64,000 nt of DNA from Octopus vulgaris (Eukaryota): the NCBI GenBank assembly GCA_951406725.2, contig OX597818.1, forward strand, positions 141,360,001 through 141,424,000, read 5' to 3'. The position numbers and the translations under genes were made by a program. The notes beneath the pieces are model-generated. The model did not search any database. It was not told the origin of the DNA and saw nothing but the letters and a program-made list of their open reading frames with translations. This document shows, piece by piece, positions 18,012-57,509 of the stretch (positions within the stretch are counted from its first letter, which is position 1; every line of letters starts with the position of its first letter).

Positions 18012-18080
18012 CTTCACTGACGAAGTACAGATGGTAAATTGATTTATTTCGCACATTGATACAGAAAGTCGAGTCTGGGG
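18012..18080 (+). ncRNA. Type-I hammerhead ribozyme motif
   Basis: CTTCA CTGACGA A-GTA..TAC-A GAA AGTCGAGT C TGGGG; stem I 5 bp with G.U pairs; stem III one change from the palindrome ACTCGAGT. Confidence 0.6.
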
Positions 18081-18464
18081 ATAATTACAATTTTTTTTTT
18101 TTCATTCCCTTTGAAACTGCTCTTATTCGTAGTTTGGGCTTTGACTGTCCTTTCTATCATGTCAATAAATAAAGTACCTGTTGCGTATTGGGTCGATCAA
18201 ATATACTGCCCCTACACCAAATTTTAATTTTAATAAAAGCTAATATTTTCTAAATATAAATATTTTATTTATTTTTTAGCTGCAATATTTTAAGTGAAAA
18301 TTTTCTTGTTCTGTACTTTACTAGATGTAATAAGTTGTCCTGAACTTCTCCAAGTGTAATAACTTGTTCTGTAATTTTTCAGGTTATTTCTCTTGCTCGC
18401 ATTTTTCCATGTAATATATATATATATATGTATTTCCTATTAACTGGCGGTATCTTTTTATGTT

Positions 18465-19235
18465 ATACTTGTTTCACTCATCAGACTGCACCTATACTGA
18501 GGCACTGCCTTGAAGAATTTTTTTTGGGGAATTACTTTACCCCAGTGCTATTTTTGTAAGCTTTGTACATATTCTATCGGTCATTTTTGCCCAACCGCTA
18601 AGATACTGGGGTCGTAAAGAAACAGACACTGGTTGTTAAGGGGCGGGACAAACAGACACACAGCCACACACACACACACACACACACACACACACACACA
18701 CACAATCACACAAACACACACACACACATGTATATATCAATCTAAATACACAATCGAAAGCACTATTAATAATTTCATGCTTTTATGATATTTGAACAGG
18801 GTTGTTTATAAAATACACCATGTATCTACAGCGGGCGTATTTTATGAATATGCCTGTTCAAGTATTATGAACGCATGAATTTCAGCAGCTCTTCCGGTTC
18901 TGTATTTAAATTGATATTTATCTATCACTGGATGGAGTATATTTTTGTTGATTCTACCTCTACTGAATCTGTAAACTATACACACGCACACACACACACA
19001 CACACACACATACACACACACACGTACACACACACACACACACACACACACATATATATATATATATAAACATATATATGACGAACGTCTTTAAGCTTCA
19101 GTCTACCAAATGCACTGACAAGGTTTAGTTGGCCCAAGACGTTCGTAGGGGACACTTGGCCAAGGTGCCACGCAGTGGGACTAGACCTGAAACCCAGTAG
19201 TTGGGAACCAAACGTTTTACTACGCAGCCATGCCG
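18465..19235 (-). mobile_element. Degenerate SINE family B in two pieces (18465-18665, 19078-19235)
   Basis: Tail and head segments similar to 17098-17481, separated by (CA)n and other sequence. Confidence 0.6.
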
Positions 19236-19283
19236 GCTTCTATAATTTCACGCCCTCCATTTGTACATGGTGTGTTATATATA

Positions 19284-20430
19284 TTGGGTTGGCCAAATAT
19301 CCATTAGGTTCCTTTATCGAATATCAGACTCCTGTTTTGAACACAAAGCGATTTATTCAATCAATGATATAATTACCGTTTCCTTCCAGTATCTTCTGCC
19401 GTCTTGTAGATAGGACCATCATTCCTTGCTCAAAGAATTTCATGTCTTTACTGGTGAAAAACTCTTCTAGTTGAATTTTTACATCTTCTTTAGAGTTGAA
19501 AGTCTGTCCATTCAATGAATCTTGGAGAGACCAAACAGGTGGAAATCTGAATTCGAATGGTGGAGCTAATATGGATAGTAAGGCGAAACTTGCCATTCGA
19601 GCGCCAATAGTTTCTGCTGCGTCTGCCAAGATGTGTGCGATCTGGCATTGCCATGATGAAAGACAATGCCTTTACAATTATCTTGTGATGGAGGATTCTG
19701 GTGGGTCGCTACCTTTATTTTGTCTAGCTGGTTATAGTACAGATCCCTGAATTGAACGTCTTACTTCCGGGAAGAAGTTCGTAAAAGACAACACCTTTGA
19801 ATCACACCAAATGGGAAGGATAAGTTTCCTAGGGTGAAGTTCCGTTTTGGAGGTTTTCTGTTGCGATTCGCTGTAAATTTTCCCTATGATCATTTGCACT
19901 CTACACTGTTATAGACGATCTATTTTTCGTCTCCTGTTACCATCTCTTCAAGAAAAAAAAGTATCATTTTTTGCAATACATCGCAGGTAGAAATCCGTTG
20001 GTCGAGATTAGCTCGTTCAGTTGATGTGACGTCCAAATATCGAGTTTACTGGCATAAAAAAGCTGATGCAGATAGATTTCAACACTCGATTTGGATATTT
20101 GGAAAATATGTGCAACCATTCTGCTCGTATAACGGGGTTTGAGTCACCGTTAATCTCAATTGTCCGGTCAGAGCTAGGTGCATCACGAATTGCAAAATTT
20201 CCGCATGGGATTCTTGAAAACCAATTCTGGCACACACGTACCGTAGCAGTATCCTCATAGCACATATCTTGCTGCTAGTTTCCGATATTTCTTGGCCTTT
20301 CTAAAATGAAAAAAAGCATGAGGGGTCGATAATATTCGTTTGGTTCTCCATTTTCTGGGTGATGCCAAGCACATAAGATACAACCTTTCTGTTGGAAGTT
20401 TGCATCGAACTACGTTGATATGTGAAGTAA
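19284..20430 (-). mobile_element. Decayed mariner transposon (transposase remnant about 19357-20351)
   Basis: TA|TTGGGTTGGCCAAA TIR; MVTGDEK, IWCDSKGVVFYELLP, VFHHGNARSH, SLQDSLNGQTF..EGNGNYIID; other TIR not found. Confidence 0.9.
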
Positions 20431-21457
20431 CTAACGAGTGTGCATGAATATAGACAGAGAGAAGAGAGAGAGAGAGTGAGGGGGAGTAAGAGAGAGAAAG
20501 AGAGAGGTCGTAAGAATTTACAAACGTTCAAGAGAACGTGAAATACTTATTGTTTGAATAGTGGATCTCGAAGCACACATAAAATAATGCATTATAGCAT
20601 GTATGTGAATATATACATACACATATATGTATTATATGTATATATGTACCTATGTTCGTATTTTATGTATACATTTGTTTGTATGTGCGTACACATATAT
20701 ATGTATCTATGAATGTATGTATATATTTATATGTGTATATACATATATATATACATGCATACATACGTACGTTTACATTTATGTATGTGTGTGCGTGTGT
20801 GCATGAGTTGATTTATGATTAATATAGTAAAGTTTACCTGACAGAGGCTAATTAAATGGTTTCTCGCACTATCATTTTTATTCATCCTTTACTTCTCTCT
20901 CTCTCTCTTTCTCTCTGTCTCTCTCTGTCTCTCTGTCTCTCTCTCTGTCTCTCTCTTTCTCACTGTTTCATTCCGTCATTGATTCTCTCAATTTTTCAAA
21001 CATCATACATATACGAGTGTGTATGTGTAAGAGTGTATGTTAATGCGTGTGCGAATGCGTTTGTGATGACTTACACAGAACTAACTCCACATATGCATAC
21101 GCACATTCACACATACGCAATTCTTCATAAACACACACAGACGCACACACACATATACTCACACACATCTCTGCAAACACAACACACAACTCCACAAGAA
21201 CACACACAAGAGGTACAATCTTTGACATACACTCAACTCTACGCACGCACACAACAAGCACTCTCTTTCTCACTTCCTCCACACACACACAAACATACAC
21301 GCATATACACATAGGCATACACACACACGCATGCACATACAAATGCACGTATAAACGCATTCACATTAAATTGGACACACAAAGAAATGACTGAAAGGGC
21401 AAGGAGAATCCGTAGTCTATAAATCAACTAGCATTCAACAATTTTCTTTCTATTTCA

Positions 21458-56557: not shown

Positions 56558-56980
56558 GCAGGCGCAAAAGTATACTAAGAAGCTTGCTTCTCAGTCACAT
56601 ATTTCTGGGTTCAGTCTCACTCTATGGTACTTGGGAAAGTGACTTCAACTTATAGCCTCAAGCCGACCAAAGCCTTGTGAGTGGGTGTAGCAGACGGAAA
56701 CTGAAAGAAGACCGTTGAATAGGAGAGGCTGTGTGGTAAGTAGCTTGCTTACGAACCACATGGTTCTGGGTTCAGTCCCATTGCGTGGAACTTTAGGCAA
56801 GTGTCTCCAACTATAGCCTCGGGCCGACCAAAGCCTTGTGAGTGGGTTTGGCAGACGGAAACTGAAAGAAGCCCATCGTATATGTATGTATATATGTGTG
56901 TATGTGTGTGTATATGTTTGTGTGATTGTGTTTGCCCCCAACATCACCTGACAACCGATGCTGGTGTGTTTTCGTCCCCG
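56558..56980 (+). mobile_element. Two consecutive family B SINE 5' parts (56558-56715, 56720-56980)
   Basis: Repeated TATAGCCTC..GCCGACCAAAGCCTTGTGAGTGG..GACGGAAACTGAAAGAAG. Confidence 0.85.
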
Positions 56981-57019
56981 TATGTGTGCGTGAGTGTGCG
57001 CGCGCGCGTGAATACATAT

Positions 57020-57421
57020 ACTCTCTTACTCTTTTACTTGTTTCAGTCCTTTAACTGTGGCCATGCTAGAGCACCGCCTTTAGTCGAGCAAATCGACCCC
57101 AAGACTTATTCTTTGTAAGCCTAGTACTTATTCAATCGGTCTCTTTTGCCGAACCGCTAGGTTACGGTGACGTAAACACACACGCATCGGTTGTCAAGCG
57201 ATGTTGGAGGGACAAACATAGACACACAAACACACACACATATATATATACATATAGACGACAGGCTTCTTTCAGTTTCCCTCTACCGAATCCACTCACA
57301 AGGCTTTGGTCCACCCGAGGTTATAGTAGAAGACACTTTCCCAAATTGCCACGCAGTGTAACTGAACCCGGAACCATGTGGTTGGTAAGCAAGATACTTA
57401 CCACACAGCCACTCCTATGCC
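57020..57421 (-). mobile_element. SINE family B, full length
   Basis: Matches 17098-17481. Confidence 0.92.
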
Positions 57422-57456
57422 TAAATAAATATTTTCATTTATTTAGCTCAGTATGT

Positions 57457-57509
57457 TCTACTGATGAAGGAAGAGTTATTAAACTGATCCAGAAATTGAT
57501 CAATCTAGA
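57457..57509 (+). ncRNA. Type-I hammerhead ribozyme, intact core
   Basis: TCTA CTGATGA A-GGA..AGTT..AACT..TCC-A GAA ATTGATCAAT C TAGA. Confidence 0.78.

Follow-up and report, generated by a model that had tools for sequence, protein, structure and literature searches.

Four hammerhead ribozyme motifs, termed H1 to H4 here, lie in a 64,000-nucleotide (nt) stretch of the Octopus vulgaris genome (GenBank assembly GCA_951406725.2, contig OX597818.1, positions 141,360,001 to 141,424,000 of the forward strand), referred to below as the window. Where the hammerhead consensus has a Watson-Crick pair, usually G-C, as the first pair of stem II (positions 10.1-11.1), all four carry two identical bases facing each other: A.A in H1, U.U in H2, and A.A again in H3 and H4. 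Exceptions to the pair have been published (PMC3088659, PMC7229834), and the departure is therefore the mark of a variant. The four motifs are probably type I hammerheads at the 3' ends of the pseudo-long terminal repeats (pseudo-LTRs) of truncated Penelope-like elements (PLEs), with an inherited same-base mismatch that replaces the first stem II pair and with the capacity to form dimers. The observation is real, and what it adds is a modest new variant.

The window is AT-rich animal repeat DNA with many microsatellites. A first-pass annotation of its letters had placed the four mismatches, and its coordinates and bases proved exact (Table 1); each mismatch stands directly 3' of CUGANGA and directly 5' of GAAA. 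The core is complete in every motif (C3 U4 G5 A6 N7 G8 A9, G12 A13 A14, A15.1-U16.1 and H17, the last being C in H1, A in H2, U in H3 and C in H4). There are three helices, with stem I open and 5, 3 plus a bulge, 5 and 4 base pairs (bp) long in H1 to H4; stems I and III close in the type I manner, and helix III is short or palindromic, an 8-10-nt segment. Stem II is long and often bulged, as had been described: the stretch between the two halves of the core is 40, 44, 30 and 24 nt, and 3-4 proximal Watson-Crick pairs are followed by an internal loop or mismatch and then by a distal helix. Its predicted stability stands out in H2 (z of -3.5) and is unremarkable in the other motifs (-0.3 to +0.2). 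When stem II was shifted by one base on either side, no 3-bp stem formed. From sequence, the four are likely type I hammerheads, with self-cleavage predicted.

Both strands were searched with a junction-neutral descriptor, which accepted a paired junction, one additional base on either the 5' or the 3' side, or a 1x1 mismatch, and all five intact-core matches in the window proved to be 1x1: H1 to H4 and an inverted duplicate of H3, termed H3'. Among 200 block-wise dinucleotide shuffles, 186 had no match and 14 had one (2 of these 1x1), and none had more. A stricter descriptor gave four matches, missing H2, versus none in 20 shuffles, and allowing one mismatch in the core added only the motifs at 39109 and 32198, which are described below.

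Table 1. Hammerhead motifs of the window and the element features around them (positions counted from the first nucleotide of the window)
Feature	Position	Strand	Description
Inverted terminal motif left of H1	17787..17832	-	resembles 3' end of H2 element
H1, type I hammerhead	18012..18080	+	stem I 18012-16/18076-80, core 18017-23, A18024.A18063, stem II 18025-18062, GAAA 18064-67, imperfect 8-nt helix III palindrome 18067-74, C17 at 18075
H2-bearing element	24599..25306	+	partial tandem: 24599-24781 recurs at 25130-25306, 89.6%; terminates at (TA)n
H2, type I hammerhead	24981..25050	+	stem I 3 bp plus bulge, core 24984-90, U24991.U25034, long stem II 24992-25033, GAAA 25035-38, imperfect helix III 25038-46, A17 at 25047
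Head-to-head inverted pair of element 3' ends	25951..26569		carries H3 and H3'; arms 92.7% identical
H3'	26149..26209	-	C3 at 26204; identical to H3, inverted, same insertion, not independent
H3, type I hammerhead	26314..26374	+	stem I 5 bp, core 26319-25, A26326.A26355, stem II 26327-54 (3 bp, 3x3 loop, 5 bp), GAAA 26356-59, U17 at 26369 (A in part of family)
H3 helix III	26359-68	+	perfect 10-nt palindrome
Older 5'-truncated H3-family copy	9436..9662	+	about 85%; starts within stem II
H4, type I hammerhead	57457..57509	+	stem I 4 bp, core 57461-67, A57468.A57491, stem II 57469-90 (3 bp, 2x2 loop, 4 bp), GAAA 57492-95, C17 at 57505
H4 helix III	57495-504	+	perfect 10-nt palindrome
H4 element 3' tail	57510..57672	+	about 165 nt, terminates at (TA)n
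Tail motif	26492..26510	+	about 95-120 nt 3' of cleavage site
Tail motif, other sites	57604-57622 (H4); about 25158-25184 (H2)		also in H3' and in the 9436 copy

The surroundings of H2 to H4 are those of pseudo-LTRs. The H2 element is pseudo-LTR-like, a partial tandem whose upstream repeat lacks a hammerhead; H3 sits in an inverted pair, whose left end adjoins a TA/CA microsatellite; and the H2 and H4 elements terminate at (TA)n. Inverted and partial-tandem 3' ends and TA targets are published forms of PLE insertion (PMC8557442), and the architecture of H2 to H4 fits them. The hammerheads had been called unrelated, which is too strong a word: H2, H3 and H4 have a tail motif in common and therefore are not wholly unrelated. 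The motif measures 21-26 nt between H2 and H4 and between H3 and H4 (scores reached by 2 and 4 of 500 shuffles, respectively), and a 19-nt version has 7 matches in the window versus 0.01 expected, with no hammerhead found near those at 11544 and 30214/29836. To the left of H1, the inverted terminal motif scores higher against the H2 terminus than any of 500 shuffles, and we infer that it belongs to the H1 insertion.

Whether the mismatch is a property of the elements or of dead copies was addressed with the family of H3. Contigs were taken from four public runs with four organism labels (519, 271, 1214 and 604 contigs; 80% likeness, 1% threshold), and among 40 of 43 substitution rows listed there is no other base at 26326 or 26355. 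Elsewhere the family does vary. In stem II, C26334>T and G26347>A lie on opposite sides of one distal pair and U26335>C converts a wobble to a Watson-Crick pair; the stem II internal loop changes as well, as does H17 (U17>A), and a central 2-nt deletion in helix III preserves the palindrome. The A before GAAA is also kept in the 9436 copy and in two loose ends that stem from divergent copies. Since these contigs are short, with differences near their ends hidden and compensating changes unphased, the evidence from them is good but incomplete. It bears on the idea that the mismatches arose from ordinary pairs after insertion, in dead copies, which is very improbable. The copies are 7-15% diverged, and the helix III palindromes of H1 and H2 are damaged, so that these two look like decayed copies; but for H3 decay is contradicted by the constancy of its family together with the 9436 copy, and for H1, H2 and H4 a rough estimate, at 10-20% breakage per pair, gives about 0.001-0.008 for loss of the same pair in each. 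Moreover, all the mismatches are same-base, and the next three pairs are intact.

U.U junctions recur in hammerheads behind intact PLE open reading frames (ORFs) that encode reverse transcriptase (RT) plus GIY-YIG. An alignment of 14 of 33 related proteins, which have a C-terminal GIY-YIG domain and a CxxxxCxxC linker and would be Neptune-like by the description in PMC8557442, served as the query that led to 79 metagenome loci, all of which were scanned for hammerheads. In 40 of these the match reached the ORF end or nearly so, and the sequence 3' of the ORF was inspected by eye: 25 have a hammerhead 80-390 nt downstream of the ORF, 1 is cut by the contig end and 14 have none. The 25 junctions are U.U (9, or 6 after near-copies are merged), G-C (9), A-U (3), G.U (2), U-A (1) and G-C plus one 3' extra base (1). 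The core covaries from C3-G8 to U3-A8 in sister elements, and the catalytic bases are kept. L031 has a further U.U motif, an orphan, on its minus strand. A recurring structural subtype had been proposed from the four window motifs, and it is supported by these U.U hammerheads, in which stem II covaries, and by the invariance of the mismatch in the H3-family rows listed. In a 35-row RT tree, 2 changes account for the 9 U.U rows versus a shuffled mean of 8.2 (0 of 500 as low), and these rows may have a single origin; the tree search was quick, junction labels were set by eye and near-copies inflate the clustering. The tie proposed between the mismatch and a long stem II does not hold generally: the ORF-linked U.U motifs have 9-15 nt between the halves of the core and the paired L009 has 45, and stem II length is a separate trait, independent of the mismatch. 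Four of the PLE hammerheads (L004, L026, L029 and L030) have an extremely short stem II, with 5-9 nt in this interval.

The A.A form also occurs in viral contigs. A generic A.A pattern matched at least 120 loci there, with both stems present in 3 among the matches listed. A family pattern found 10 type I loci (L200-L209), all 10 of them A.A; their stem I changes are compensatory and their helix III is stable. When both junction bases were freed, the identical 10 contigs were returned; within the reach of the pattern, the family is therefore uniformly A.A. Several of its hammerheads lie directly upstream of a ribosome-binding-site-like stretch and an ATG. PLE relatives were sought among 244 candidate stretches of viral contigs, and there were none.

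Because the sister elements have G-C, A-U, G.U or U-A at the 10.1/11.1 step and no extra base, the mismatch itself appears to fill that step. It might instead combine two insertions, the 5' extra base of PLE hammerheads (between A9 and G10.1) and a further base before G12, such that the true 10.1-11.1 pair lies one step out. The metazoan PLE minimal hammerhead consensus includes such a 5' base, which is A, U or C (PMC4209133), ordinary motifs of that kind occur in the window at 39109 and 45385/45458, a single additional A precedes GAAA in L005, and the next pair is G-C, as this arrangement would have it, in H1, H4 and the A.A viral family. That next pair is A-U in H3, however, and C-G in H2, and every ORF-linked U.U motif has C-G or U-A; beside a U.U or A.A junction it is Watson-Crick in 11 of 11 rows, with all four types represented. 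The PLE clade holding U.U has no member with a 5' extra base (0 of 25), this feature being confined to more distant loci, and its paired junctions include G.U intermediates. Double insertion is unlikely overall; the case for it is weak for U.U, a judgement that we do not extend to A.A. H1 to H4 likewise depart from the minimal form, having a 1x1 junction in place of the 5' extra base before G10.1-C11.1 that goes with a reduced helix III.

A junction filled by a same-base mismatch has precedents, and for U.U the implied novelty does not hold. Perreault et al. (2011, PMC3088659) described a natural U10.1-U11.1 variant in phage, U.U being the best-tolerated mispair; stem II begins with a mismatch, as in the window motifs, but it is a rare variant, and the passages of that paper make no mention of A.A. 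In axolotl, HHR_Amex2 has U.U at the helix II base in about 60,000 genomic type I copies; the motif cleaves to 22% when monomeric and far better when dimeric (Cervera and de la Pena 2020, PMC7229834). There, too, a same-base mismatch at the helix II base is family-wide, but helix II is canonical and short, with loop 1-loop 2 contacts, the carriers are 350-bp tandem retrozymes, and only U.U is seen. Close too are the Hydra-clade PLEs of Craig et al. (2021), with U.U in 14 of 26 rows (two of them identical) and U.C in one; File S2 also has C.A in the non-Hydra PLE-X1_cBra and no A.A among its 34 rows (PMC8557442). Their hammerheads resemble the window motifs in being type I, near the element 3' end, at (TA)n targets and with a 1x1 mismatch between core and stem II; stem II is short (3-7 bp) with a simple loop, unlike the long stem II of the window, and helix III is mostly a 9-nt hairpin and not an even 8-10-nt palindrome. 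The mismatch is not discussed in text passages of that paper. The metazoan PLE minimal hammerheads share with the window motifs their type I form in pseudo-LTRs, short stem I, palindromic helix III and dimer model, but differ in the conserved G10.1-C11.1 behind the extra base and in having little or no helix III (PMC4209133). Figure S3 of the same paper (Cervera and de la Pena 2014) includes a Hydra row with U before GAAA and one AGAAA core, the 29th of 56 by count, which is a possible A.A case, row order not being guaranteed.

For A.A, literature searches, including a motif search of the PMC3088659 supplement, met no stated case in the passages covered, and Lunse 2017 and the PMC7229834 supplement may show one; the text passages of Roberts 2023 (PMC9901934) give no 10.1/11.1 double-mutant values. 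A.A with a long, bulged stem II is likely an unreported hammerhead variant. We advance only tentatively, as something rather doubtful, the wider view that A.A is an undescribed active junction, independent in octopod PLEs and in the viral family, the commonest intact form in the genome and filtered out by pair-demanding searches. Standard descriptors had been expected to miss such motifs, which is true in part. The filter of Perreault et al. discarded N10.1-N11.1 mispairs (PMC3088659), but Rfam passes over the paired siblings too (G-C in L003 and L006, A-U in L008), and Craig et al. recovered the U.U form, filed as canonical (PMC8557442). At the gathering threshold Rfam had no match in 11 sources, the window and 10 loci, paired siblings included; at E<=1 the best 150 of 158 window matches are microsatellite-driven microRNA ones, with no hammerhead among them.

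In solved structures the sheared A9.G12 pair adjoins G10.1-C11.1, and catalysis is by G8 and G12 (PMC11300833); the role of the junction is therefore structural. The same-base mismatch would stack between A9.G12 and the 3-4 canonical pairs beyond it, the A.A conceivably in a sheared geometry of its own, with G8/G12 chemistry presumably unchanged and the rate probably lower. Monomers are predicted to misfold, and two copies to cleave as a double hammerhead via the 8-10-nt helix III palindrome, perhaps with assistance from the element protein; such cleavage would serve to process the tandem transcript of the element. For PLE-type motifs, cleavage as a dimer is the model in print (PMC4209133; PMC6765202), and one PLE hammerhead is protein-assisted, requiring the element protein (PMC11167929). 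In the monomer folds predicted, the core is tied up with helix III, and for H3 (-23.8 vs -19.4 kcal/mol) and H4 (-20.4 vs -17.8 kcal/mol) the double-hammerhead dimer has a lower energy than two monomer minima. The internal loops of H3 lie at distances compatible with a tertiary contact between stems I and II. Because none has a same-strand partner, the window copies themselves are likely inert remnants. The window has no same-strand tandem hammerheads, whereas a non-LTR retrozyme would have one in each tandem unit.

Several points, besides the limits of the H3 contigs and of the tree given above, weigh against inherited, dimer-forming PLE hammerheads. The family-level test covers H3 only, and A.A occurs in none of the 25 ORF-linked hammerheads. 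No ORF adjoins any of H1 to H4 in the window, for which reason the PLE link and the clade are inferred, and their flanks had no blastn match to the 79 PLE loci. For H1 the misfolded monomers are more stable than the dimer (-19.8 kcal/mol, as against -16.3 for the dimer), and each of the three motifs computed (H1, H3 and H4) reaches a lower dimer energy, in another fold, when the dimer is left unconstrained. Cleavage of H1 to H4 is a prediction, and hammerhead cleavage is dispensable for insertion in vitro (PMC11167929). This last result also favors a motif conserved as a protein-binding or dimerisation RNA structure, its cleavage lost, as do the absence of reads ending at the cut site in one PLE (PMC11167929), the poor cleavage of PLE hammerheads in vitro (PMC4209133) and the frequency of U17 in the ORF-linked PLE clade. 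We consider such a structure quite unlikely, given that all catalytic core bases are kept, the covariation of C3-G8 to U3-A8 included, and that the axolotl U.U motifs cleave (PMC7229834).

Other hammerhead-like sequences occur in the window. A fifth long-stem-II hammerhead, at 32203-32116 on the minus strand (core match 32198), combines an A-U junction with an 8-nt palindrome, and its G8 is replaced by A; it is probably of the same lineage as H1 to H4, and decayed. An ordinary minimal hammerhead at 39104-39139 (plus) has a 5' extra A, a G-C pair and A6 changed, and adjoins (TA)n. The fold-back at 31973-32067 has at its center a short palindrome that resembles a helix III segment, and the tail motif of H2 to H4 comes next; truncation and inversion of an element at its hammerhead may have produced it. 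At 12238 (minus), 4159, 32814 (minus), 50323 (minus) and 18484 (minus) there are further CUGANGA cores in a partly hammerhead-like context; they fail the descriptors and are possibly decayed motifs. The large inverted repeat at 29341-29886 also terminates in the shared tail motif.

The window contains PLE coding remnants as well. A decayed RT fragment at 43677-44111 (minus), identified by homologue search and with no Pfam match, has its highest identity in Octopus sinensis (73%), with other relatives in octopods and Mytilus. It lies in a decayed PLE (45000-42530, minus) with RT and C-terminal GIY-YIG remnants, whose 3' end enters a microsatellite and has no hammerhead. Directly upstream of the decayed ORF, an inverted repeat at 45263-45581 holds two ordinary minimal hammerheads (45458 plus, 45385 minus), with a 5' extra A, a G-C pair and a damaged stem I. 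A Naiad origin of the motifs was considered and is unsupported, H1 to H4 showing by eye no likeness to Naiad 3' ends (Ovul, Omin, and the preceding consensus, Obim by order). The 3' end of Naiad_Ovul and the preceding record (PMC8557442 File S5) have a "half core" resembling a permuted hammerhead, in the order closed stem II, GAAA, then CUGAUGA, the stem II loop being able to pair upstream of CUGAUGA; two short motifs from it are absent from the window. Other repeats include a 650-bp tandem duplication at 15431-16784 and, at 41862-42218, the remnant of a Mariner-type DDE transposase (Pfam DDE_3, E 1.7e-4). The ORF at 33985-34410, without a Pfam match, has what we take to be a resemblance to the C-terminus of a CR1/L2-type long interspersed nuclear element.

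The finding implies neither new chemistry nor a new system. It means that the most conserved non-core pair of the hammerhead is freely variable in one PLE group, where it may be G-C, A-U, G.U, U-A or U.U, and that the same pair is apparently A.A in octopods and in one viral family. If the A.A forms are active and have been filtered out, such ribozymes are undercounted; should they cut, descriptors ought to permit a 1x1 junction, genomic ribozyme counts would rise, and the elements would offer a natural series in which to study the influence of stem II geometry and of dimerisation on the rate.

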